From the sequence record OP558005.1: a stretch of DNA of 64,000 bases, one strand, 5' to 3'. Position numbers and translations under genes: made by a program. Positions 945-56,569 of the stretch are shown here, one piece after another. Source of the stretch: Klebsiella phage vB_KpnM_VPA32. The notes beneath the pieces are model-generated. The model was not told the DNA's origin. It saw nothing but the letters and a program-made list of their open reading frames with translations, and made no database searches. How positions within the stretch are numbered: position 1 is the stretch's first letter; each line of letters starts with the position of its first letter.

Positions 945-1135
945 AGAGTTACTTACCGTTAGTGAGGGCCTTCCATGGCTCAAGAATTTCCATCAGCTAG
1001 CGGGAGTGCTAGGACCCTGATTGTAACTGGCTTTACCGCACTTGGGCTCGACCTTTTCACAGGTACCAGAAGCTACTTCACTCAGAGGACACGACGTTCA
1101 TGAGGAGAGGTCCAGGTTGGCTTTTTGATTGAGGA

Positions 1136-1429
1136 TTAACTAAATGGGTCAACCAATTTATTGCCTTCACGACGGAAGACTTTAGCAGCAAATTTATTGG
1201 TTGGGTTATCAACCATAATTTTGCGCATATGACCGGTTGCTACAGTGCGGGCTGCTTTATATCCAGCGATATTATCCTTGATAGTTACGCGCTTACCACC
1301 GGGACCATCCGCAGTTACTTTCCAGACACCAGTGTCATCACCAGGTTTGATATTCTCAATCCAGATGTAACCGCCTTGTACTCGCTTTTGTTCAGCTGCT
1401 TCATTTAAAAATTCATTATAGGTTTTCAT
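1136..1429 (-). CDS. internal head protein-like (ipII-like) with N-terminal capsid-targeting sequence [11 protein letters not shown]
   Basis: Internal ATG at 1429 begins the T4 IP capsid-targeting consensus [11 protein letters not shown]; syntenic with ipIII/ipII downstream of e in T4; overlaps the e stop by 14 nt. Confidence 0.6.
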
Positions 1430-1910
1430 ATGCTTTCCATGTTCCAACTCGGAATGTTTCAATTACTCGTTTAGCACGATTTGGTGTCTGACGATACCAC
1501 TTGGAATTAGCAAGCTCTTTTGCAGCTGCTTCCCATTGTTTTGATTTAAGCAGACGCATTGATGCTGGGAAACCAGCTACACCTGCAACGCCCATCTGGA
1601 AAACCATATTAATGAGTGCAGCGCGACGAACTCCATCAAGTACATCATATACTGGTTTTAATACAGCATTTCCGAGAATCCCTCGAGTTGCTTTATCGAC
1701 ATCTTTCGCAAAAATAGCTTCTGCTTCAGCTTTTGTGATTTGACCATTACACGGACGCCCCACAAGCTTATCAAGTTCTCGTTTAGCAACATCAAGAGAA
1801 GGGTCACGAGTCAAAAGGTGACCGATACCGATTGTCCAAAAACCTTCGGTGTCTTTATAGATTTTAGAATCGTATCCTTCATCGATACGAAGCATGCCAA
1901 AAATGTCCAT
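1416..1910 (-). CDS. e: T4 lysozyme (endolysin) e
   Basis: 164 aa, [12 protein letters not shown]...[10 protein letters not shown] is near-identical in pattern to T4 lysozyme. Confidence 0.95.
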
Positions 1911-1943
1911 GAGGACCTCCTATCAGTTGATAGGAGTATTTAT

Positions 1944-2423
1944 TTAGCATTCCCAAAGAGCGTCTTGAATGACCTTTGGATAAAGTTTTTGCATAACTGA
2001 GAATAAACTTGGACCCATTACTACATTCCACATACGCGGATGAATCAAAGCAAATGCATCGATTTCAGGGAATTCATTTCCGTCTTCATCTGTATGATAT
2101 GCTGTGCAAACACAATCTCTGAATTGAGAGTGTTCCACTGGATGCATGTATTGGAAAAGATGTATATCTTTATTGCTAGCATAATCATGACGACCTAGGT
2201 CAACCAGTAAACTCTGGTCGTAATCAACAAAGCCGGTTTCTTCACGACATTCGCGAATAGCTGCTTCAATAGGTGTTTCACCTTCTTCAATATGACCCTT
2301 TGGAATATCCCAGCGTGATGGCCCACCGCCTAATCCAGAATTAGTCACTCTTCCCATGAATAGTTCGTAGTCTTCGGTAAAGAAGATAATTCCTGCAGAG
2401 ACTTCTTTAATTTTCTTACTCAA
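1944..2423 (-). CDS. nudE: Nudix hydrolase NudE (e.1)
   Basis: Nudix box GHIEEGETPIEAAIRECREETG; sits next to e as in T4; TTG start with a strong GGGGTGA Shine-Dalgarno and TTGA overlap with the upstream stop. Confidence 0.85.
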   Translation of the reverse strand: MSKKIKEVSAGIIFFTEDYELFMGRVTNSGLGGGPSRWDIPKGHIEEGETPIEAAIRECREETGFVDYDQSLLVDLGRHDYASNKDIHLFQYMHPVEHSQFRDCVCTAYHTDEDGNEFPEIDAFALIHPRMWNVVMGPSLFSVMQKLYPKVIQDALWEC

Positions 2424-2650
2424 ATTTCACCCCAACTAATTTCACGAAGTCTTTGCATGATTGACTCAACTTCTTCAATCATATCTTCATCACAGTCAAA
2501 CGAACCTTCTACCATCCAATCACTAATTGGAGTGAACATTTCCAGGTCCGTAGCAAGACGATTACGAATATCATCAACTGACTCATTATCATTAAAAGAG
2601 TACAAATAAGAATCAGCTGATTCGGATTTTACAAATACTGCAATACTCAT
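2420..2650 (-). CDS. hypothetical protein (e.2-region)
   Basis: ORF with ATG, translationally coupled to neighbours. Confidence 0.55.
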   Translation of the reverse strand: MSIAVFVKSESADSYLYSFNDNESVDDIRNRLATDLEMFTPISDWMVEGSFDCDEDMIEEVESIMQRLREISWGEI

Positions 2651-2958
2651 ACCTTTTCCTCTAAGAAGTCCGACAGCTTAAAATCTTTACGGTCCATCAG
2701 ACCGTAATGAATGTTCTTCAGCGTATCGTACATGTCCCAGTACTTTTCTTTTAGCATATTACCAAATGGTGGAATGTAAAGCTTATCCCATTTAGCAGCT
2801 AATTGGCCGCTGCGCAGTTCTCCTGGAACATTTTCAACGATACGTAAAACTTTAGTTGCAACCTCATAATCGGATGGCGGAATCCATCCCCAATTATGAT
2901 GGACTGAACCGTTAATTTCGCCATTCAGCGAAGTAAAAATTGTAGCTGGACAACTCAT
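2647..2958 (-). CDS. hypothetical protein
   Basis: ORF with ATG, overlapping ATGA-type coupling. Confidence 0.55.
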   Translation of the reverse strand: MSCPATIFTSLNGEINGSVHHNWGWIPPSDYEVATKVLRIVENVPGELRSGQLAAKWDKLYIPPFGNMLKEKYWDMYDTLKNIHYGLMDRKDFKLSDFLEEKV

Positions 2959-3317
2959 CGTGTACCTCTAATACCTTGAATGAAATTTAAAGCATCTTCA
3001 CCTGGTGGAACTTCTTTAGGCTTAGATTTCGATTTAAAGAGTTTCCATTCTCGTTTTTGGTCAAAAGTTCTTCGTTGAACCTGACCGAGATAAAATAACC
3101 ACTTTCCAATCCAGTAGAATGGAGTTAAAATTCCGGCCATCCAACCGACGAAAAGTAATTGTTCTCCATACAGAGGACTAAAGAAGTACAATCCCCAATA
3201 TAAACCAAATCCATTAAGCATTGTGAACATAAAGCAAATAATAATAGTGCCAATAGTCCATCCGAAATTATCATATGAACCAGCATCTTTGAATCCGCGA
3301 AATAATGTTTTAATCAT
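2955..3317 (-). CDS. small membrane protein (2-3 predicted TM helices)
   Basis: Hydrophobic stretches IIICFMFTMLNGFGLYWGLYFF and VGWMAGILTPFYWIG. Confidence 0.55.
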   Translation of the reverse strand: MIKTLFRGFKDAGSYDNFGWTIGTIIICFMFTMLNGFGLYWGLYFFSPLYGEQLLFVGWMAGILTPFYWIGKWLFYLGQVQRRTFDQKREWKLFKSKSKPKEVPPGEDALNFIQGIRGTR

Positions 3318-3652
3318 CGTTTAATCCTGCATCTGGAGATAAAGTTCTCTAAATTTTGTTTGTCGTCGTAAATGGCCTTGGCTTTAGTAAACAGTTTAAC
3401 ATGAATTTTACAATAGCACCATTTGATAAAAGAATCTAAAACTATTACCACGAATAATGAGCATAAAGCACTTAGTGGTACAGAGATAATCATTTCAGCT
3501 ACAAATCCATTGAACCACCAAACTACGAAATTTGATATGAAGACAGTAAGTATAATAATTGCCCAACAAACGTCGTCCTCATATTTCGACTTGAATCTAT
3601 CTTCAATTTCTCGTTCAAAATGTCTGATATTCATTTTAGGATTGTATTTCAT
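3314..3652 (-). CDS. small membrane protein
   Basis: TM-like segments WAIIILTVFISNFVVWWF and ISVPLSALCSLFVVIVL. Confidence 0.55.
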   Translation of the reverse strand: MKYNPKMNIRHFEREIEDRFKSKYEDDVCWAIIILTVFISNFVVWWFNGFVAEMIISVPLSALCSLFVVIVLDSFIKWCYCKIHVKLFTKAKAIYDDKQNLENFISRCRIKR

Positions 3653-3993
3653 TTTTTACCTCGACATTCCGCAATGAATTCTTCTGATTCTCGGATTATT
3701 CTATTACGAATAACTTTAGCGTTCTGTTCAGCTAAGCGTTTATTTTCTGGTCGCATCACCCACCAAATTGCAATCTTGGGAGCTTTATTGTTTGACCAAA
3801 TCATAAAAGGTATAGCTATAAAAATAGATGTGACGAACCAAATTGGAGCATATGGGTCAGGTAAAAGAATAGAAGGAAAGAAACACAATGCCACCGTAAT
3901 TACAGATGCAGCAAGACAAACCATCATATGCCAAAAGTCTGCTTTTTCTTCAAGTTCTCTTAATTCGCTTCTTGGCTGATATCCCATGATCAT
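3649..3993 (-). CDS. small membrane protein
   Basis: TM-like segments MMVCLAASVITVALCFF and IWFVTSIFIAIPFMIW. Confidence 0.55.
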   Translation of the reverse strand: MIMGYQPRSELRELEEKADFWHMMVCLAASVITVALCFFPSILLPDPYAPIWFVTSIFIAIPFMIWSNNKAPKIAIWWVMRPENKRLAEQNAKVIRNRIIRESEEFIAECRGKK

Positions 3994-4364
3994 TTCCTCG
4001 CTTTACGGCAGTCATTAATAAAGCATTCAAACCGTTCAACTTTGCTGAGCTTTGACACTATTTTATTTCTTCGCATGCCAATTAAAATTTGTGCAATCAC
4101 GTTAACAAATTCACCAATCAACATAACAATGATACCAAACATTCCCCAACCAAAGCATGTAAATGCAGCCATTGCTCCAGCTGAATCAGCTCTTTCTTCT
4201 TTTGGAAGATTTGTAATATCAGACCAACCCCAAAATACAATAATTCCGTATAGTGTCAATGCAACACACCAGCAGAGCTTTTCATTTCTGGTCAAAATAT
4301 ATCTGACTTTGGTTGAAAGAGAATCCGTTTTAGCAATTTTAGCTTTAAGTTCAGTTGAATTCAT
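3990..4364 (-). CDS. small membrane protein
   Basis: TM-like segments WCVALTLYGIIVFWGW and FGWGMFGIIVMLIGEFV. Confidence 0.55.
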   Translation of the reverse strand: MNSTELKAKIAKTDSLSTKVRYILTRNEKLCWCVALTLYGIIVFWGWSDITNLPKEERADSAGAMAAFTCFGWGMFGIIVMLIGEFVNVIAQILIGMRRNKIVSKLSKVERFECFINDCRKARK

Positions 4365-9269: not shown

Positions 9270-9345
9270 TGGTGCCGGTTAACGGATTCGAACCGCTGAC
9301 CCTCTCATTACAAATGAGCTGCTCTACCAACTGAGCTAAACCGGC
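9270..9345 (-). tRNA. tRNA-Thr (anticodon UGU), CCA encoded
   Basis: Cloverleaf drawn by hand; GGTTCGAATCC T-loop; anticodon loop TTTGTAA; resembles T4 tRNA-Thr. Confidence 0.8.
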
Positions 9346-9346
9346 T

Positions 9347-9431
9347 TGGTGCATCAAGTGGGATTCGAACCCACAATCCAAAAGGCGCAGCATTTTAAGT
9401 GCTGTGTGTATACCAGTTCCACCATTGATGC
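9347..9431 (-). tRNA. tRNA-Leu (UAA), class II
   Basis: Anticodon loop CTTAAAA; long variable arm; similar to T4 tRNA-Leu. Confidence 0.8.
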
Positions 9432-9437
9432 GAAATT

Positions 9438-9522
9438 TGGAGCTAGGAGTGAGATTCGAACTCACGAAGGGATACCCGGCGGATTTGCAATCCGCTGCCT
9501 TTGGCCACTCAGCAACCCTAGC
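9438..9522 (-). tRNA. class II tRNA (long variable arm) with anticodon read as GCA; identity uncertain
   Basis: Acceptor GCTAGGG/TCCTAGC, T-arm GTGAG-TTCGAAT-CTCAC, anticodon arm GCGGA-TTGCAAA-TCCGC. Confidence 0.55.
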
Positions 9523-9526
9523 AAAT

Positions 9527-9604
9527 TGGTCGAGGTAGAGGGATTCGAACCCGTCGACCTGTGGATTAGAAGTCCACTGCTCTATCCAGCTGAGCTATAC
9601 CCCG
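9527..9604 (-). tRNA. tRNA-Arg (UCU)
   Basis: Anticodon loop CTTCTAA; standard cloverleaf. Confidence 0.8.
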
Positions 9605-9690
9605 AGTGTGTTCAGACAGGACTCGAACCTGTAAGCATGTTCTTGCGGCGTTTTACCACCGTCGTCAGCATATGATTCAATATGCGAACT
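9605..9690 (-). ncRNA. tRNA-like element / possible degenerate tRNA or small stable RNA (T-arm ACAGG-TTCGAGT-CCTGT present, acceptor imperfect)
   Basis: T-loop motif without a clean cloverleaf; it occupies the position where T4 carries rnaC/rnaD next to tRNA-Arg. Confidence 0.3.
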
Positions 9691-9744
9691 CAAAAGGTGT
9701 TGGACCCCTTGTCTACCAATTCCAGCACTGAACAACTTTATTTA

Positions 9745-9969
9745 TTACATATCAACTTGAGTAAACCAGTTGATTTTGAAATACTCATCAAAATGAAGAG
9801 CAGGTTCAACTTGAGTATCTTCCTCAAGAAGAATTAAATTCTTTCTTACAATCGGGTCAAGATGAGTTGTGTTTAAGCAGCTATCATGCCAATATGTAAG
9901 AACTCGATTTGATTCAGTATCAACGAGATAACGAACATTCATATCAGGATGTCGATACAGATTAATCAT
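9745..9969 (-). CDS. hypothetical protein
   Basis: 74-aa ORF with ATG. Confidence 0.5.
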   Translation of the reverse strand: MINLYRHPDMNVRYLVDTESNRVLTYWHDSCLNTTHLDPIVRKNLILLEEDTQVEPALHFDEYFKINWFTQVDM

Positions 9970-9972
9970 AAT

Positions 9973-10422
9973 CTATTTCTCTTGAAGCATTTTGCGTAAA
10001 CGATAGAGCTGATTACAAAATTCCTTTTCAGTCAAAACTGTTTCAGAGATTTTGTTCTTGCCCATACTATGAGTTAATGTTGCGTTACGAGTAGCAATCA
10101 ATGCTTTTTGGAATCCAGTGTTTTGAGCAAGTGCGTCATAAGCTCCAGTTAAAAGATTCTGGTATGCTTCAGATGCTCGATGAATAGGAACACCCTTCCA
10201 GTAAAGCGTTTGAGTAGGCCACCAACGTTTCTTCTTGCCTTTAAACTTTGCTGCCTTTCCAACCAAGGTGCAAACATGAGCTTGCATTTCAGGGTTAGAA
10301 AATTTGAGGGATTGTAAAAATCCCTCCATTGAAGCGCATTCTACACCGTCATAAACGAAAGCATGTGGTGCAAAGTTACTTAAAGCACAAGAAGGATATG
10401 AACTTCCAGAGCCAATGTCCAT
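9973..10422 (-). CDS. NADAR (YbiA/DUF1768) family protein, putative ADP-ribose / ADP-ribosyl-DNA glycohydrolase
   Basis: Motifs YPSCALSNFAPHAF, EGFLQSLKF, and the C-terminal THSMGKNKISETVLTEKEFCNQLYRLR match NADAR family signatures. Confidence 0.7.
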   Translation of the reverse strand: MDIGSGSSYPSCALSNFAPHAFVYDGVECASMEGFLQSLKFSNPEMQAHVCTLVGKAAKFKGKKKRWWPTQTLYWKGVPIHRASEAYQNLLTGAYDALAQNTGFQKALIATRNATLTHSMGKNKISETVLTEKEFCNQLYRLRKMLQEK

Positions 10423-10653
10423 TTAATTACCGTGAGATATTCTAGAAGGTTTCTTATCAAAATAATATTCATACGAGCCATCTAAACGACCTGCTTTAGT
10501 ACGGCAATATGAATCCCATTTCTTATAATGCCGCCATTCATCATTATATCTTGGATGACGGTCAGCGATTAAAATCTCTAATGGCCAACCAGGCGCAAAG
10601 GAACGGAGCCGTTCGACCTTTTTAATGTATCTTTTCTTTAAGATTTTCTTCAT
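10423..10653 (-). CDS. hypothetical basic protein
   Basis: 76-aa ORF with ATG. Confidence 0.5.
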   Translation of the reverse strand: MKKILKKRYIKKVERLRSFAPGWPLEILIADRHPRYNDEWRHYKKWDSYCRTKAGRLDGSYEYYFDKKPSRISHGN

Positions 10654-10871
10654 ATAGATTCCGACATTACGTGAGTAGTTCTCTTTCTGATTGTAAATTG
10701 AGTTAATTCATCAACTTCACCACAACGCCAAGCATCATCTTCAGTTTCAAAACCAAGAGCCTCAAATAGGTCACCTAGACGCCAACCTTCGTCAAACTCG
10801 GGGTCTCCTGAAAAATAGTAATAGTAATCACCAGTTACTAAATCTTGAATTACAAAATCAAACTTTTCCAT
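10650..10871 (-). CDS. hypothetical strongly acidic protein
   Basis: 73 aa, about 25% D/E. Confidence 0.5.
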   Translation of the reverse strand: MEKFDFVIQDLVTGDYYYYFSGDPEFDEGWRLGDLFEALGFETEDDAWRCGEVDELTQFTIRKRTTHVMSESI

Positions 10872-11368
10872 CAGATACTTACCACAGTAATAGCTTCAGG
10901 AGCTTTAGGAATAACGATATCTTCTTCGATGTAGAAGAGCTTAAATGTTTCAGCTACACGCATGAAGTCAATATCATAACCAACTGGAGTTCCAATCAAT
11001 TCCTGAATCTTATCCATCACTTTATACTGGACTTGATAAAAATCTTCAAGACGAGCATCGAATTCATCTTCAGTATAATCACCTTCTGGGATTACAAAGC
11101 CAAGCACTTCTGAACAGAACTCTGGAGTGATTTCTTCATTTTCAACACAGTATTCAAAGAAAGCATCACCGGAATAATCTTCATTACCCATTCCATTAGG
11201 GTCTGAATTATCAGATGCAAAACATTTAGCAACGGCACACCAACCTGGAATGTGTCTAGCATTTACAGCATAAATCACATTTTCTTGATAATCATCTCCG
11301 TCGTTTTCCCATGATACACACGATACAGCATAGCCTTTAGGGATAGTTTGACCAAAGCGGAGTTCCAT
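10871..11368 (-). CDS. hypothetical strongly acidic protein (about 25% D/E, very few K/R), DNA-mimic candidate
   Basis: 165 aa; residue composition; ATGA coupling with the downstream ORF. Confidence 0.55.
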   Translation of the reverse strand: MELRFGQTIPKGYAVSCVSWENDGDDYQENVIYAVNARHIPGWCAVAKCFASDNSDPNGMGNEDYSGDAFFEYCVENEEITPEFCSEVLGFVIPEGDYTEDEFDARLEDFYQVQYKVMDKIQELIGTPVGYDIDFMRVAETFKLFYIEEDIVIPKAPEAITVVSI

Positions 11369-11378
11369 AATATTTCCT

Positions 11379-11753
11379 TCAATTAAATGGTGGAAGTGGT
11401 TTCATATACAAATCTATCAACATTCTCCATTTAGCAATTACTTTAGAATACGGAGATTTATGAGAGAATTGCGAAATGTCAGAATAATCAAGTTCAGGCA
11501 GTGGAGTTAAATGACCCATCAGCTCACGAGGAAATTGATGAAAACAATTCATCAAATCTTTGTAAACATAATCAAGTAAGTCTTTAACATCAAAGAATTG
11601 GGTATTTAGTCCTTCTTTGGAATAACGATATTTCAGAAATTTCCAATGGCCAGACTTAGAATCTTGAGTAAACGCGTAATCACTATGAAGCATGATATCG
11701 CGAACAAAATCTTCAGAAAAGAAGATGGAGTGAGTGCAACCATAATAAATCAT
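11379..11753 (-). CDS. hypothetical protein
   Basis: The track ORF extends with a TTG start into the tRNA at 11772-11848; the internal ATG (MIYYGC) at about 11753 is preferred. Confidence 0.45.
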   Translation of the reverse strand: MIYYGCTHSIFFSEDFVRDIMLHSDYAFTQDSKSGHWKFLKYRYSKEGLNTQFFDVKDLLDYVYKDLMNCFHQFPRELMGHLTPLPELDYSDISQFSHKSPYSKVIAKWRMLIDLYMKPLPPFN

Positions 11754-11771
11754 AATATTTTCCTCAGAATT

Positions 11772-11848
11772 TGGTGACCCCAGCAGGACTCGAACCTGCA
11801 ACCTAGCGATTATGAGTCGCGTGCTCTAACCAATTGAGCTATAGGGCC
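11772..11848 (-). tRNA. tRNA with CAU anticodon, most similar to T4 tRNA-Ile (CAU, lysidine-type; reads AUA)
   Basis: GGCCCTATAGCTCAATTGGTTAGAGCA...CTCATAA...GGTTCGAGTCC is near-identical to T4 tRNA-Ile. Confidence 0.8.
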
Positions 11849-11875
11849 AAAGTCCTCCTAAGAGGACCGAGGGTA

Positions 11876-12100
11876 TTATTCAACCATGAAATCTGCTACT
11901 TCATCAAAGTCGTTATTGATGACAACAGTAAATGGCAGAGCTTCATCACTTGTTTTGATAGTCAGCTTAACAAAACCATCAACAGTTTCAACCAAACCAA
12001 CGATTTTATCTGAACGCACTACAGCACGAGCTACGTCAACAATTTTGCCAGTCATTGCAAATGTAGCGATTTGGTTAACTTCAACAACGATACGTTTCAT
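11876..12100 (-). CDS. hypothetical protein
   Basis: 74-aa ORF with ATG, upstream of the isolated tRNA. Confidence 0.5.
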   Translation of the reverse strand: MKRIVVEVNQIATFAMTGKIVDVARAVVRSDKIVGLVETVDGFVKLTIKTSDEALPFTVVINNDFDEVADFMVE

Positions 12101-12159
12101 TCTTTTTCCTTAGTGGTTTTGATAAGGTAATTATATACTGAATTTTTAAAGCGTTTTCA

Positions 12160-12195
12160 CTAAAAAGCCCCGTAACAGATTTCTCTGTCCGGGGC
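12160..12195 (-). terminator. rho-independent terminator (minus strand) at the distal end of the tRNA cluster
   Basis: On the minus strand, GCCCCGGACAG..CTGTTACGGGGC followed by TTTTT. Confidence 0.5.
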
Positions 12196-12201
12196 GTCAT
12201 T

Positions 12202-12276
12202 TGGTGGGAAGTGTTGGAATCGAACCAACCTCTCATGCTCTTCAGGCACGCGCTAATCCATCTCAGCTAACTTCCC
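12202..12276 (-). tRNA. tRNA-Phe (GAA)
   Basis: Anticodon loop CTGAAGA at positions 32-38; canonical numbering fits. Confidence 0.75.
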
Positions 12277-12279
12277 AAT

Positions 12280-12356
12280 TGGTCGGTGCGGCAGGATTTG
12301 AACCTGCGACCCCTTGGTCCCAAACCAAGTGCTCTACCAAACTGAGCTACACACCG
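12280..12356 (-). tRNA. tRNA-Pro (UGG)
   Basis: Anticodon arm CTTGG-TTTGGGA-CCAAG. Confidence 0.8.
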
Positions 12357-12362
12357 TTAATT

Positions 12363-12437
12363 TGGAGCATCCAGAGAGAATCGAACTCTCCTCCGTTGGG
12401 TGGAAACCAACTATAATAGCCGCTATACGATGGATGC
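12363..12437 (-). tRNA. tRNA-Gly (UCC)
   Basis: Anticodon arm GTTGG-TTTCCAC-CCAAC. Confidence 0.8.
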
Positions 12438-12440
12438 ATT

Positions 12441-12560
12441 TGTACGGAACGCCAGGATTCGAACCTGGTTACAAAGTAGTTGACGCTACATTGCATTTTT
12501 CAAAGGCCGTCATCTTTCTATGTCAAAGGAGCAGCGTCAACTACTTTATCCTTAGACACA
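12441..12560 (-). ncRNA. tRNA-like element: a consensus T-arm (CCAGG-TTCGAAT-CCTGG) fused to a 15-bp perfect hairpin (AAAGTAGTTGACGCT / AGCGTCAACTACTTT)
   Basis: Inverted repeat and T-loop seen directly; no acceptor stem could be paired. Confidence 0.35.
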
Positions 12561-12586
12561 TCAGATAAGTCCTCGAACCGATTGTT

Positions 12587-12660
12587 TGGCAGGCCCCGTA
12601 GGAATCGAACCCACGTCACTGAGGTTGGAGCTCAGGGTAATACCACTATACGAGAGACCT
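12587..12660 (-). tRNA. tRNA-Trp (CCA)
   Basis: Anticodon arm CTGAG-CTCCAAC-CTCAG; acceptor has two G-U pairs. Confidence 0.7.
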
Positions 12661-12664
12661 AAAA

Positions 12665-12758
12665 TGGAGGAAGCGGTGGGATTCGAACCCACGGACCGTA
12701 TCACTACGGCCTCCGCATTTCAAGTGCGGTGCAATTAACCAGACTCTACCACGCTTCC
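12665..12758 (-). tRNA. tRNA-Ser (UGA), class II
   Basis: Anticodon arm CCGCA-CTTGAAA-TGCGG; long variable arm. Confidence 0.8.
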
Positions 12759-12766
12759 GAATTGAG

Positions 12767-12839
12767 GGTGACCGATGGGAGTTGAACCCATGACTACGAG
12801 AATCACAATCTCGAGTTCTACCAACTGAACTACGGCCAC
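12767..12839 (-). tRNA. tRNA-His (GUG), CCA not encoded
   Basis: Anticodon arm CGAGA-TTGTGAT-TCTCG; T-loop TTCAACT. Confidence 0.75.
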
Positions 12840-12945
12840 ATCAATATTTACTCCAGCAATCATGATGCCTTCACACGAAATTGAGAGAAGAGTGATCAGT
12901 TCAACCCTTGTAGACGCGTCAAGTAAATATTGATGTGACAGCTTA
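12838..12945 (-). repeat. 13-bp inverted repeat (ATCAATATTTACT ... AGTAAATATTGAT) enclosing about 80 nt with a GGGTTGAAC T-loop-like motif
   Basis: Seen directly; no ORF fits; lies between tRNA-His and tRNA-Gln. Confidence 0.35.
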
Positions 12946-13053
12946 TTTAAGAAGAGTGAGAGTCCCAGTCTTGTACGGAGTAACCATTTATGCATTGGCA
13001 GCTATCGCGCGGTTCGCACTTCCGATAAATGGACTTACCGTTACACTCTAATT

Positions 13054-13128
13054 TGGCTGGACTATCTGGATTCGAACCAGAGATACCGGAGTCAAAGGCC
13101 GGTGACTTAACCGCTTGTCTATAGTCCA
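13054..13128 (-). tRNA. tRNA-Gln (UUG)
   Basis: Anticodon loop CTTTGAC; acceptor TGGACTA/TAGTCCA. Confidence 0.7.
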
Positions 13129-13134
13129 ATTGTT

Positions 13135-13210
13135 TGGAGGCGGGTGATGGACTCGAACCATCGCGTAACGGGATATGAACCCGTCATTCTACCAACTGAA
13201 GTTAACCCGC
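13135..13210 (-). tRNA. tRNA-Met (CAU)
   Basis: Anticodon arm ACGGG-TTCATAT-CCCGT; T-arm GATGG-TTCGAGT-CCATC. Confidence 0.7.
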
Positions 13211-13368
13211 ATCTATCCGGATTCTTGAAGTACTAACAAGTAGCTTGATGTAGAACACGCTAAAGATATAATCTTCCGAATATAGAGCTTATCCCGTGGG
13301 AACAAACAGCTTCGTCCTCGGCATTATCTTATAGGACTCAAACTCATCTTCAAGAACTGCCTCGTATT

Positions 13369-13444
13369 TGGCGGACCTAACGGGATTCGAACCCGTGACT
13401 CTCGCGTGACAGGCGAGTATTTTCACCGCTGAAACTATAGGTCC
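13369..13444 (-). tRNA. tRNA-Asp (GUC)
   Basis: Anticodon arm CTCGC-CTGTCAC-GCGAG. Confidence 0.8.
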
Positions 13445-13687
13445 AAATTTACTTTCGTGAGTATGGGATTACCCTCAAGCCTTCCGGAAAGCTGAATAGG
13501 CGTTATTGGCTCTCATATACCCGTGCACAGATATAATCTTCATTAACGCAATAACTTCATCAATATACTCCGAAAGTAAACTTTCGGCGCCGTATTTAAT
13601 TTGGACTGTGTAGTTATCGTTGAGGGAACTCACAGACAGGGATTAAAGTGCCGACGACTTATCAGAACGTCTTCTGACTTCTACATT

Positions 13688-13772
13688 TGGCGGGCCGTGC
13701 AGGTATCGAACCTGCCTAGTCATTTCTGACACGGATTAACAGTCCGTCGCTTACCCTCTCAGCCAACGACCC
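13688..13772 (-). tRNA. tRNA with a class II-like extra arm (GTCA-GAAA-TGAC) and anticodon read as GUU; identity uncertain
   Basis: Acceptor GGGTCGT/ACGGCCC, anticodon arm ACGGA-CTGTTAA-TCCGT, T-arm GCAGG-TTCGATA-CCTGC. Confidence 0.55.
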
Positions 13773-13778
13773 TGAATT

Positions 13779-13853
13779 TGGTTCTCCGTAAGAGAATTGA
13801 ACTCTTCTTTCCGACGTGAAAGGCCGGCGTCCTAACCGATAGACGAACGGAGA
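13779..13853 (-). tRNA. tRNA-Glu (UUC)
   Basis: Anticodon arm CCGGC-CTTTCAC-GTCGG. Confidence 0.7.
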
Positions 13854-13854
13854 T

Positions 13855-13932
13855 TGGTAGGACGTGAGGGAGTTGAACCCATCGACATTCCGATTAAAAG
13901 TCGGATGCTCTAACCAACTGAGCTAACGTCCT
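13855..13932 (-). tRNA. tRNA-Lys (UUU)
   Basis: Anticodon arm TCCGA-CTTTTAA-TCGGA. Confidence 0.75.
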
Positions 13933-13970
13933 GTAGATATTTATAATATCAAAAATATCTTTAAGCAAAT

Positions 13971-14046
13971 TGGTGGGAATAACTGGACTCGAACCAGTGA
14001 CCTAACGATTATCGGTCGTTTGCTCTACCAACTGAGCTATATTCCC
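13971..14046 (-). tRNA. tRNA-Ile (GAU)
   Basis: Anticodon arm AACGA-CCGATAA-TCGTT. Confidence 0.8.
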
Positions 14047-14052
14047 GGAATT

Positions 14053-14140
14053 TGGTGGGGAGTGATGGAGTCGAACCACCCGAGTCGCAATGACAACAGA
14101 TTTACAGTCTGCACCGCTACCTCTACGGAATTAACTCCCC
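14053..14140 (-). tRNA. tRNA-Tyr (GUA), class II
   Basis: Anticodon arm GCAGA-CTGTAAA-TCTGT; long variable arm. Confidence 0.8.
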
Positions 14141-14505: not shown

Positions 14506-14785
14506 AATGTTCTCTCGCAGTGTTTTGGTGAATCAACGATAATTCATCGAAGATTGACTTCATTGCATTTTTCACAAAGACTTTTTCAGAAGGCTCCATC
14601 GACGTATTGTTGATGATTCTTGCCATTCGTTCTTTGAGCTTCTTTTTCCGATTCCGGACCGTCTCCTTAGAAGCGGTCCTCATGTGAGCAAGATTAGTCA
14701 TCATGTTCCGTCGATAGATTAATAATATCAAGTAGCTCTTTAAGCATTTAACCGCGTTTGTATGCGTGATGAGCCAAAATAGCAA
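14480..14785 (-). CDS. hypothetical basic protein (possibly nucleic-acid binding); the true start is probably an internal Met near 14700
   Basis: ORF; Lys/Arg-rich segment RNRKKKLKERMARI. Confidence 0.45.
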   Translation of the reverse strand: MLFWLITHTNAVKCLKSYLILLIYRRNMMTNLAHMRTASKETVRNRKKKLKERMARIINNTSMEPSEKVFVKNAMKSIFDELSLIHQNTAREHYEHQQNLA

Positions 14786-15176: not shown

Positions 15177-16187
<1,011 letters not shown>

Positions 16188-16191
<4 letters not shown>

Positions 16192-45075: not shown

Positions 45076-45891
45076 ATGCTGAAAGACATCCTGCTCCAGG
45101 AAGCTCAGAATATTGAAGCTACCGTAGCTGTGGACAGTATTTTCGAATCGGTCGAGCTTTCTCCGGAAGTAAAAGCGAAGTTCGAAACTGTATTCGAAGC
45201 AACTGTGAAGAAACATGCCGTTGAATTGGCTGAATCCCACATTACCAAAATTGCTGAAATGGCTGACGAAAAGCTGAAAGACGCTAAAGAAGAAGCCGAA
45301 GAAAAAGCTGAAAAGAAACTGACAGAACATGCTTCTCGTTTCTTCAATCACATCGCTCAAGAATGGATGAACGAAAACAAACTGGCTGTTGATAAAGGCA
45401 TCAAAGCTGAACTGTTTGAATCCATGTTCGCTGGTATGAAAGAACTGTTCGTTGAACACAACGTTGTTCTGCCAGAAGAATCAGTTGATGTAGTTGCTGA
45501 AATGGAAGAAGAACTGGCTGAAGCTCGTGAAGAAATCAGCAATCTGTTCGAAGGTATTTCTGCTCGCGACGAAAAAATTAATACCATGCTGCGTGAAAGC
45601 GCTGTAATGGAATCAACTAAAGACTTGACCGACGTTCAGAAAGAGAAAGTAGCTTCTCTGACCGAAGGTATGGAATATTCCGACGAATTCTCAAGTAAGC
45701 TGTCTGCCATCGTCGAAATGGTTAAAGGCTCCGTCGAGAAAGAGGTAGTAAATGAAAGCATAAATACTACCGACAATGATGCTGACGGTCTCAACTTCAT
45801 TACTGAAGAACACATTGAGCCAGAAGAAAAAGTATCAAAACAGCCATCGATGATGGACGCATACGTAGCCTCTGCGGCACGTCTTTCTTAA
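45076..45891 (+). CDS. 22: prohead core scaffold gp22
   Basis: 271 aa, acidic coiled coil. Confidence 0.9.
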   Translation: MLKDILLQEAQNIEATVAVDSIFESVELSPEVKAKFETVFEATVKKHAVELAESHITKIAEMADEKLKDAKEEAEEKAEKKLTEHASRFFNHIAQEWMNENKLAVDKGIKAELFESMFAGMKELFVEHNVVLPEESVDVVAEMEEELAEAREEISNLFEGISARDEKINTMLRESAVMESTKDLTDVQKEKVASLTEGMEYSDEFSSKLSAIVEMVKGSVEKEVVNESINTTDNDADGLNFITEEHIEPEEKVSKQPSMMDAYVASAARLS

Positions 45892-54868: not shown

Positions 54869-55099
54869 ATGAAAACATTCGAAGAAGTCATTTACGAAGC
54901 TACTATCGATACGTTTATGAGTAAGATTGCTCAATGCCAGACTTTGGAAGGTTTAGAAGAACTGGAAGCTTATTACAAAAAGCGTGTTAAAGAAGCTGAC
55001 CTGAAAGATACTGATGATATCTCTATCCGAGATGCATTGGCAGGAAAAAGAATGGAATTTGAATCTGAAGATGAGTCAGAGTCGGAAGAAGAATTCTAA
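54869..55099 (+). CDS. uvsW.1: UvsW.1
   Basis: 76 aa, directly downstream of uvsW as in T4. Confidence 0.85.
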   Translation: MKTFEEVIYEATIDTFMSKIAQCQTLEGLEELEAYYKKRVKEADLKDTDDISIRDALAGKRMEFESEDESESEEEF

Positions 55100-55986: not shown

Positions 55987-56569
55987 TCACTTTCCTCTTA
56001 AAATATTCAACCATTCCAGCATAATCTACGGCTGGAAACCCATTATTCTTAGCTATAGTACCAAATTTACCACGTTTTGGTTTATTATTGCTTAACCAAA
56101 GAGAGTACAATTCAGTTTCTTTATCCCATGGGATAGCTGAGCTTCTTTTAGATATCTTTGTAGAGTCTTTAGCCCAGTGAGATTGGGTTTTAAACTTTTC
56201 TTTCATTGATTTAGATATCTTAAGTTTTCTTTCATTTGAGCATGGGCGCTTTAATCCACTCATTGGATGTATTTCCCATACTCTGCCTCCATCTCCACCG
56301 TCTGCAATGTTAACACAATTACTGAATTTTTCTTTTGCTTCTCTTATAAGCAAATTTTCGAATTCAGCGTTTAGTTCAGCGGTTTCAAATGTGGCAAGCA
56401 CATATTTTTCAAACCTTATACTTGGATTCTTTTTGGCATCTTTTATAGCCTTGCCAGAACCTATGTACTTATTGTTTAAACCGCATCTAGAAGAATGTTT
56501 TCCAAAATACAGTTTTATTCCGTTATCACTTATAATTTTAGTAAGATAGCAATAATGGTCCATAATCAC
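55976..56569 (-). mobile_element. Seg-like GIY-YIG homing endonuclease gene inserted between gene 25 and uvsY
   Basis: YCYLTKIISDNGIKLYFGKHS (GIY-YIG variant), then KYIGSGKAIKDA...NCVNIADGGDGG as in SegB-E; this intergenic position is empty in T4. Confidence 0.6.

Follow-up and report, generated by a model that had tools for sequence, protein, structure and literature searches.

An array of tRNA genes in Klebsiella phage vB_KpnM_VPA32 is interrupted by an islet of protein-coding genes, one of which is an orthologue of adfN, the T4 gene that confers resistance to the host defense system DarTG1. The DNA analyzed is a stretch of 64,000 nucleotides (nt) from sequence record OP558005.1, to which we refer as the window, and the islet consists of six open reading frames (ORFs) at positions 9745-11801, on the same (minus) strand as the tRNA genes. 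Taking the evidence together, we think it probable that the islet represents early or middle accessory genes grouped as a block within a Karamvirus tRNA region, and that its adfN orthologue reverses the modification made by the toxin DarT1. An earlier note on this DNA, made from the sequence alone, had described six ORFs interrupting the array, recognized a NADAR protein among them, and proposed that two very acidic neighbors are DNA mimics and that the whole is an acquired anti-defense cassette. That proposal is partly supported: the interruption is exactly where it was placed and the NADAR gene was correctly recognized but belongs to a known family, while the DNA-mimic claim finds no support and the claim of acquisition is only partly right.

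The adfN ORF (9973-10422, minus strand) has a predicted product of 149 residues that belongs to the gp30.3 family of phage NADARs and is an AdfN orthologue. It matches Pfam PF08010 (Phage_30_3; T4 gp30.3) with an E-value of 1.4e-59 and a score of 200.3 bits, well over the gathering threshold of 36, and residues 9-143 align with positions 2-137 of the 138-position profile; all of the more than 4,700 homologues found in a large protein database likewise fall in PF08010. Alignment with T4 gp30.3 (43% identity, E 2e-35) places E33 and K40 opposite the T4 residues E36 and K43, and the catalytic Glu and Lys, together with H118, are invariant among 29 homologues. H118 lies in a T-H-S sequence and is aligned with the His of the T4 K-H-S. 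Phage NADARs have a His where YbiA has a Glu and the DarT1-linked NADARs have an Asp (PMC11125620), and H118 is presumably the counterpart of this replacement. The AdfN of the close Karamvirus relative vB_EclM_AS6 is 100% identical. An AlphaFold2 model of the full-length ORF is of moderate quality, with a predicted local distance difference test score (pLDDT) of 79 that falls below 50 for residues 1-17, and contains an intact C-terminal helix (residues 132-148).

The call of a NADAR protein in the earlier note is right in substance. When the family profile is compared with E. coli YbiA using hhalign, the two are matched with a probability of 82% and an E-value of 1.1e-5 over 90 columns that include the catalytic motif, with LSNFAPH-F--DG----S-EGFLQSLKF placed opposite FSNFAAWPIKVDGKTWPTSEHYFQAQKF. 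Foldseek comparison of the model gives YbiA (2b3w) as the best match (probability 0.98, template modeling score 0.58, E 0.047), and 8bau and 8bat, the NADARs of P. nicotianae and G. lovleyi, are also among the matches; the same set of three has been reported for T4 AdfN, and the G. lovleyi protein has been described as a DarG1 antitoxin (PMC11825919). Profile and fold both place the ORF within the NADAR superfamily, at moderate significance.

That YbiA is the best match by structure and by profile, together with a faint sub-threshold match to the YbiA-type model TIGR02464 (E 0.062), might be taken to mean that the islet NADAR is a housekeeping enzyme like YbiA, a riboflavin-intermediate N-glycosidase, or that it acts on ADP-ribosylated RNA or protein, for which the T4-like ADP-ribosyltransferases Alt, ModA and ModB could in principle yield substrates. 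We regard this as very improbable. YbiA is merely the best-matching solved NADAR, in a list that also contains the G. lovleyi 8bat structure, and the islet protein is firmly within the gp30.3 clade, in which the YbiA-type Glu is replaced by a His (PMC11125620) that is here the invariant H118; moreover, for the T4 member of this clade de-ADP-ribosylation of DNA as well as an anti-DarTG1 phenotype have been demonstrated (PMC11825919).

Gene 30.3 of T4 now bears the name adfN (anti-DarT factor NADAR) and is necessary and sufficient for T-even phages to resist DarTG1 (PMC11825919). Purified T4 AdfN strips ADP-ribose from DarT1-modified DNA in vitro, and E36A and K43A mutants are impaired (PMC11825919); an independent study reported guanine-specific de-ADP-ribosylation by T4 gp30.3 (PMC11125620), and a transposon screen found adfN to be essential only on DarTG1 hosts (bioRxiv 10.1101/2025.11.20.689424). 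The biochemistry suggested in the earlier note, removal of ADP-ribose from guanine in DNA as a counter to DarT1, has therefore been demonstrated for T4 gp30.3 (PMC11825919, PMC11125620), with anti-DarTG1 activity demonstrated for the T4, Bas32 and Bas60 proteins only (PMC11825919). For the islet protein we infer ADP-ribosylglycohydrolase activity and an anti-DarTG1 role from homology to T4 AdfN. It would be a stand-alone enzyme of the NADAR fold, a predicted guanine-ADP-ribose DNA glycohydrolase that removes ADP-ribose from the guanine bases of phage DNA, and would in this way reverse the replication block imposed by the DarT1 toxin of the host's DarTG1 defense system.

The adfN allele of the Karamvirus Enterobacter phage PG7 has one extra T in a GAATTTTG run (window 10017-10020, minus strand; PG7 locus 4199-4300), and the resulting frameshift leads to loss of the C-terminal helix. 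In phage RB69 a T insertion cuts short the C-terminal helix of AdfN and lowers its activity, which renders the phage sensitive to DarTG1 (PMC11825919), and by offset calculation the PG7 insertion would be at or near the RB69 position. Among 22 Karamvirus records the extra T is present in PG7 only, and the window allele is without it; this restriction points to a strain-specific mutation or loss, or to a sequencing error, and at one record in 22 we reject the interpretation that it is a population polymorphism.

The layout of the tRNA array provides the context for these observations. ARAGORN identifies 18 minus-strand tRNA genes spanning 9270-14046, and Rfam adds a nineteenth at 14056-14140 (39 bits) that ARAGORN missed and that is annotated as tRNA-Tyr at the equivalent position in PG7. 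The array is broken by seven minus-strand ORFs, six of which run contiguously from 11801 to 9745 and include adfN; we designate the other five of these A, C, D, E and F, and the seventh, at 11876-12100, ORF G. To one side is a distal sub-array (9270-9604, minus strand) of tRNA-Thr(TGT), Leu(TAA), Cys(GCA) and Arg(TCT), scored by Rfam at 48-69 bits, and to the other a proximal sub-array (12202-14140, minus strand) of Phe, Pro, Gly, Trp, Ser, His, Gln, Met(CAT), Asp, Asn, Glu, Lys and Ile(GAT) together with the tRNA at 14056-14140. An isolated tRNA gene with a CAU anticodon (11772-11848, minus strand) is bounded by the six-ORF block and ORF G. Its designation as tRNA-Ile(CAU) in the earlier note is reasonable despite the ARAGORN label of Met(CAT), since it shares 87% identity with E. 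coli genes that carry the tRNA-Ile annotation and has the GGCCC acceptor stem of T4 tRNA-Ile; as a tRNA-Ile2-like species it would require lysidine modification for reading AUA.

The islet ORFs are arranged head-to-tail and either abut or overlap by 1-4 nt, with TGATG at 10871, ATGA at 10650-10653, and TAAATG at 10422-10425. Every one has a PHROGs match, with E-values from 4e-23 to 9e-55 for the seven and from 4e-31 to 9e-55 for the first six, and because all seven are members of phage protein families they are genuine phage genes and not chance ORFs. The islet genes are co-oriented with the tRNA genes and are probably co-transcribed with them, and ORFs A, C, D, E, F and G are phage-specific accessory proteins that would be translationally coupled to adfN.

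The islet region is 95-98% identical at the DNA level, over its full length, to about 30 Karamvirus genomes in GenBank, comprising PG7 and its relatives, and on sequence the window is that of a Karamvirus, a PG7-like relative of T4. PG7 carries the same genes (PG7_148-154) and has one additional ORF between the CAU tRNA and tRNA-Phe. The flanks are syntenic with T4, in that one end of the array is flanked by e, nudE, e.6 and e.8 and the opposite end by trna.4, 57B and gene 1, so the islet occupies the canonical T4 tRNA region. Its genes have the attributes of T4-type tRNA-region accessory genes: they lie in the syntenic slot, on the tRNA strand, and homologues of adfN and of ORFs E, F and G are present in the arrays of other genera. 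The T4 region is not composed purely of RNA genes, as had been assumed in the earlier note, since segB, a homing-endonuclease gene, lies between the T4 tRNA-Arg and tRNA-Ile genes and the T2 array also holds an ORF. We note that the window does encode a homologue of the SegB-like GIY-YIG homing endonucleases (56129-56554, minus strand; 31% identity to T4 SegB), distant from the tRNA array.

The position of adfN varies among the T4-like phages. In T4 it lies between the ligase gene 30 and rIII, in Slopekvirus near the ligase gene, and in Schizotequatrovirus near gp55/gp47, and in Jiaodavirus, Biquartavirus and Karamvirus it is within the tRNA array. The Jiaodavirus order is tRNA-Met(CAU), an ORF E homologue, adfN, tRNA-Leu and tRNA-Arg, and that of Biquartavirus is tRNA-Met, one ORF, adfN and tRNA-Arg. 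The adfN subclade to which the islet gene belongs is conserved at 66-89% across the Jiaodavirus, Slopekvirus, Aeromonas and Vibrio T4-like phages compared, and we surveyed its context at 80 IMG/VR loci. Of the 24 loci forming its main enterobacterial T4-like context group, 21 place adfN within 1 kb of a tRNA gene, most often with tRNA-Arg(TCT) immediately downstream, and in the Aeromonas group, too, adfN is within 1 kb of a tRNA. Since many T4-like genera have adfN next to tRNA-Arg(TCT), this placement is old and common, and does not represent a recent event in this phage.

The description of the islet as an acquired cassette therefore needs to be qualified. Recent acquisition is not borne out, given the presence of adfN in the arrays of many genera, but the companion small ORFs do vary and have been shuffled between genera: ORFs E, F and G are found in the arrays of other genera, with a different order relative to adfN and the tRNAs. 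The best description of the islet is that of a hot spot where accessory genes from a limited pool are rearranged among conserved tRNA genes, its location being accounted for by the nature of T4-like tRNA arrays as recombination-prone hot spots for accessory genes, with the conserved tRNA genes probably acting as anchors for exchange. Absence of the islet from all other genera, together with a foreign base composition, would undercut this description, and such absence is contradicted by the loci elsewhere that have adfN within an array. We also considered whether the islet is a relocated T4 30.x block and reject this, because the six ORFs other than adfN (A, C, D, E, F and G) have no homologue in 131 kb of T4, which includes all of its early regions.

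ORF E and adfN are within 2 kb of each other at 13 of the loci compared, including that of the 366-kb Erwinia phage Hallingskeid. However, they are not an obligate pair, since each is found alone: ORF E adjoins tRNAs without adfN in T2, LPCS28 and IME13, and Biquartavirus, Slopekvirus and T4 have adfN but no ORF E beside it. A conserved adfN neighbor as the T-even AdfN cofactor was likewise considered and rejected, because the neighbors differ from genus to genus (30.2 and 30.4 in T4, others in Slopekvirus and Biquartavirus, ORFs C and A in Karamvirus) and T4 is without ORF E. In the Hallingskeid locus (1021-4223), adfN is 77% identical to that of the window and has a homologue of ORF E (35%) 1.3 kb upstream, one of ORF C (38%) nearby, and a tRNA-Gly 2 kb away, which suggests exchange of a gene set between T4-like and jumbo phages.

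The two acidic ORFs of the islet are D and E. ORF D (10650-10871, minus strand; 73 residues) matches phrog_23382 (E 4e-31) and is very acidic, with 24.7% Asp plus Glu, 8.2% Lys plus Arg, an isoelectric point (pI) of 4.07 and a net charge of -12; the 32 phage records in which it is present are almost all from Karamvirus, and it has no match in Pfam or NCBIfam. ORF E (10871-11368, minus strand; 165 residues), a member of a widespread phage family, has 20.6% Asp plus Glu, 6.1% Lys plus Arg and a net charge of -24, and contains the motif W20-E21-N22-D23-G24-D25. Among the 87 crude gene calls of the window they rank third and fourth in acidity, and were rightly described as very acidic, although the statement that they have almost no Lys or Arg was overstated. 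ORFs that are as acidic or more so, with net charges of -18 to -12 per 100 residues, are also present at 2420-2650 (minus strand), 54869-55099 (plus), 15937-16191 (minus) and 45076-45891 (plus), showing that strong acidity is not unique to the islet.

ORF E homologues are found by tblastn in 572 phage records, including Escherichia, Klebsiella, Aeromonas, Yersinia and other phages, and an exhaustive profile search yields 220 clusters at 50% identity. In an alignment of 86 members the mean column identity is 22% and the median net charge -17, yet E21 and D23 are invariant and W20, N22, D25, G12, G61, N62 and R137 are conserved in at least 90%. With this family alignment AlphaFold2 predicts a structure with a pLDDT of 94.9 and a predicted template modeling score of 0.87, in which an N-terminal beta-hairpin tipped by WENDGD is followed by five helices and a C-terminal strand. 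ORF E is therefore a folded rather than a disordered protein. The Foldseek matches in BFVD are uncharacterized phage proteins only, the model has no significant relative among solved structures and no RNA-binding or nuclease fold, none of the 86 members has a Pfam match, and there is no sequence match in the PDB and no similarity to T4 Arn.

These data bear on the possibility that the islet is a dedicated anti-defense cassette, in which the two acidic proteins act as DNA mimics like Ocr or Arn against restriction, BREX or type IV systems, beside an anti-DarT enzyme. Both ORFs have the strong net negative charge expected of a DNA mimic and are more acidic than T4 Arn itself (17.4% Asp plus Glu, net charge -9), the acidity of ORF E is kept across its family, and the closeness of ORF E and adfN at 13 loci, Hallingskeid among them, is as might be expected for such a cassette. 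We nonetheless consider it improbable. Nothing beyond composition favors mimicry, as ORF E has no similarity in sequence or structure to a known DNA mimic (Ocr, Arn or ArdA) and resembles no PDB chain or Pfam family; ORF E and adfN occur separately, and the relatives of ORF D are nearly all in Karamvirus. In addition, the best-conserved positions of ORF E form a specific motif rather than a diffuse charge, and such position-specific conservation of polar residues argues for a defined binding or catalytic site, so that ORF E is unlikely to be a generic DNA mimic. The conserved acidic and polar hairpin motif (WENDGD with G61-N62, Y131 and R137) most likely serves to bind a ligand, metal or host protein.

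An alternative explanation for ORF E, and perhaps for its neighbors, is that it is functionally connected to tRNAs, either protecting or maturing phage tRNAs or inhibiting host tRNA-targeting nucleases through nucleic-acid mimicry. We examined its context at 80 IMG/VR loci (L015-L094), and find a tRNA within 6 kb in 45 and within 1 kb in 30, with the nearest tRNA on the same strand in all 45. When loci with full-length matches are grouped by common flanking genes, so as to lessen the effect of shared ancestry, a tRNA is within 1 kb in nine of 24 ORF E contexts and within 6 kb in 12, compared to four and six, respectively, of 31 adfN contexts (p 0.054 and 0.022 by Fisher test); if a nominal 5-10% baseline is assumed instead, the proximity of ORF E to tRNAs has p-values of 1e-6 to 3e-4. 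The gap is only 16-40 nt in contigs unrelated to T4 (L049, L050, L056 and L091), and an ORF E homologue directly precedes the first tRNA in T2 and tRNA-Lys in LPCS28. Among T4-like phages ORF E is within 700 nt of an Ile2-type CAU tRNA even where a phage has only two or three tRNAs, and the partner is nearly always CAU; a general tie to tRNA-Ile2(CAU) was rejected, because the partner varies outside the T4-like phages.

There are nonetheless several reasons for caution in reading these patterns as a tRNA function. A tRNA within 6 kb is lacking in about half of the ORF E context groups, the difference from adfN is of borderline significance and adfN makes an imperfect negative control, long blocks of co-oriented genes make a same-strand neighbor likely in any event, and arrays that are hot spots for accessory genes may give rise to linkage with no functional tie; nor is there the RNA-binding or nuclease fold that such a role might lead one to expect. 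The linkage is thus suggestive, either of function or of shared residence in a hot spot, and a tRNA-connected role for ORF E strikes us as rather unlikely. What can be described is a large, fast-evolving family of acidic folded proteins that stays linked to tRNAs, and often to adfN, through rearrangements in at least nine unrelated contexts including jumbo phages; were the linkage functional it would make ORF E a new factor, a prospect that we hold only tentatively. It would then represent a new tRNA- or translation-side factor in phage-host conflict, for example an inhibitor of, or decoy for, tRNA-targeting defense nucleases, or, alternatively, a new kind of nucleic-acid mimic.

The remaining ORFs of the islet are small. 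ORF A (9745-9969, minus strand; 74 residues) matches phrog_27825 (E 4e-51) and is restricted to Karamvirus among the loci compared. ORF C (10423-10653, minus strand; 76 residues, phrog_7065, E 4e-41) is basic, with a pI of 10 and a stop codon that directly adjoins the start of adfN (TAAATG), and it has homologues with 72% identity in another T4-like group and 38% identity in the jumbo phage Hallingskeid. ORF F (11379-11753, minus strand; phrog_3355, E 5e-33) encodes 124 residues from an ATG at 11753; a TTG-extended form (11379-11801) would overlap the tRNA, and because the ATG is preceded by a GAGGA ribosome-binding site it is the likelier start. Partial homologues of ORF F are present in the tRNA arrays of other T4-like phages. 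ORF G (11876-12100, minus strand; 74 residues, phrog_5980, E 4e-23) is a second coding insert, between the CAU tRNA and tRNA-Phe, and has a 57% homologue at the same relative position in Jiaodavirus KpV477. Searches of ORFs A, C, D, F and G against Pfam, NCBIfam and PHROGs return only families of unknown function or sub-threshold noise (such as Cmr2_hel_dom1, E 0.007).

Between ORF A and tRNA-Arg we find a tRNA-like structured RNA of about 130 nt (9606-9738, minus strand), recognized by reading of the sequence, alignment and folding. It combines an acceptor-type stem (GTTCAG/CTGAAC) with a canonical T-arm, GGTTCGAGTCC, folds with an energy of -40.3 kcal/mol (z -2.4), and when aligned to T4 rnaC and rnaD shows partial likeness to rnaC (species 1 RNA); it is called by neither ARAGORN nor Rfam and is not annotated in PG7. 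The proximal sub-array also has spacers of 150-240 nt with no tRNA call (12438-12586, 12840-13053, 13212-13368 and 13445-13687, minus strand), in the first of which PG7 annotates a 95-nt 'tRNA-Met', and these may be degenerate tRNAs or small RNAs.

Candidate expression signals are also present. The MotA-box consensus was used to search for middle promoters, and MotA-like patterns number 19 in the window compared to 9.7 expected, an approximately twofold excess that is reached in three of 100 shuffles. Minus-strand motifs of the form GCTTNA-N11-13-TANNNT occur upstream of ORF G (12130-12152), inside the array (13943-13966) and upstream of it (14722-14745), the first of these (GCTTTA-N11-TATAAT) being a candidate MotA-type middle promoter. 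Just 3′ of tRNA-Phe is a putative terminator (12162-12195, minus strand), a hairpin GCCCCG...CGGGGC followed by TTTTT that was recognized by inspection and is absent from the output of a terminator consensus scan of the array. The sigma-70 promoter and terminator consensus scan of the array was uninformative, with three promoter-like sites compared to 11.6 in shuffled sequence. The array may be transcribed in several units.

Several considerations weigh against the interpretation of the islet as an accessory-gene block with an adfN orthologue that reverses DarT1 modification. The PF08719 hidden Markov model (HMM), the search suggested in the earlier note, has no HMMER match to the adfN ORF at E≤1, a result that is uninformative, since a separate Pfam family (PF08010) covers the phage clade; HMMER searches of all PDB sequences with the ORF and with a 25-sequence profile also produce no NADAR match. 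The Foldseek E-value is only 0.047, for a model of moderate quality, and the ORF is only 43% identical to the T4 protein that was assayed. T4 AdfN requires another T-even factor for full activity (PMC11825919), so that function in a Karamvirus or Enterobacter setting is an extrapolation. The assignments of co-transcription, promoter and terminator come from consensus matches only, the binding of a ligand or partner by ORF E is proposed from its conservation, and we infer the role of the tRNA genes as recombination anchors.

That a phage NADAR can reverse DarT modification was already established for T4 gp30.3/AdfN in 2024-2025, and what the window adds is a predicted AdfN orthologue from a different subclade and in a different genomic position. 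GenBank records of Karamvirus still call adfN a 'hypothetical protein', and Karamvirus candidates for therapeutic use can now be annotated as carriers of an anti-DarTG1 gene. With adfN forming part of the tRNA array in many T4-like genera, it follows that tRNA clusters carry counter-defense genes. The residual interest lies in the ORF E family, which is abundant, confidently folded and tRNA-linked, and is a reasonable candidate for functional screening.

Comparison with known systems helps to define both the acidic proteins and AdfN. Ocr of T7, Arn of T4, ArdA and p56 of phi29 are, like ORFs D and E, small, strongly acidic, phage-encoded early proteins, but ORF E differs in having no significant likeness to any of them, in its position-specific motif, and in its mixed alpha/beta fold. 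DarG1 and the cellular NADARs (YbiA, PF08719) share with the islet AdfN their fold class and the N-terminal catalytic motif SNF...DG...S-x-E...Q..KF, and their reaction, hydrolysis of guanine-ADP-ribose, is predicted to be the same. Unlike these, the islet protein has no N-terminal extension and no linked DarT toxin, has a His in its last strand in place of the Asp of DarG1 and the Glu of YbiA, and escapes the PF08719 HMM.

T4 gp30.3/AdfN is the closer counterpart: both are stand-alone PF08010 proteins of about 150 residues that have the catalytic Glu/Lys pair, the His typical of phage NADARs and an intact C-terminal helix, and in both cases the gene lies on the early-gene strand of a phage of the Tevenvirinae. 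They differ in sequence (43% identity) and in location, the islet gene being in a tRNA array beside tRNA-Arg(TCT) instead of between the ligase gene 30 and rIII, and without 30.2 and 30.4 as neighbors. The islet as a whole resembles the ORFs of the T-even tRNA clusters (T4 segB, T2_137 and T2_138 of T2, and trna.2-4), which are also coding genes that break or flank the array, on the same strand and in the slot between e.8 and trna.4/57B, and T2_138 is itself an ORF E homologue; the islet differs from these in that it is larger, with six ORFs plus one in 2.4 kb, has no homing endonuclease, and includes adfN.

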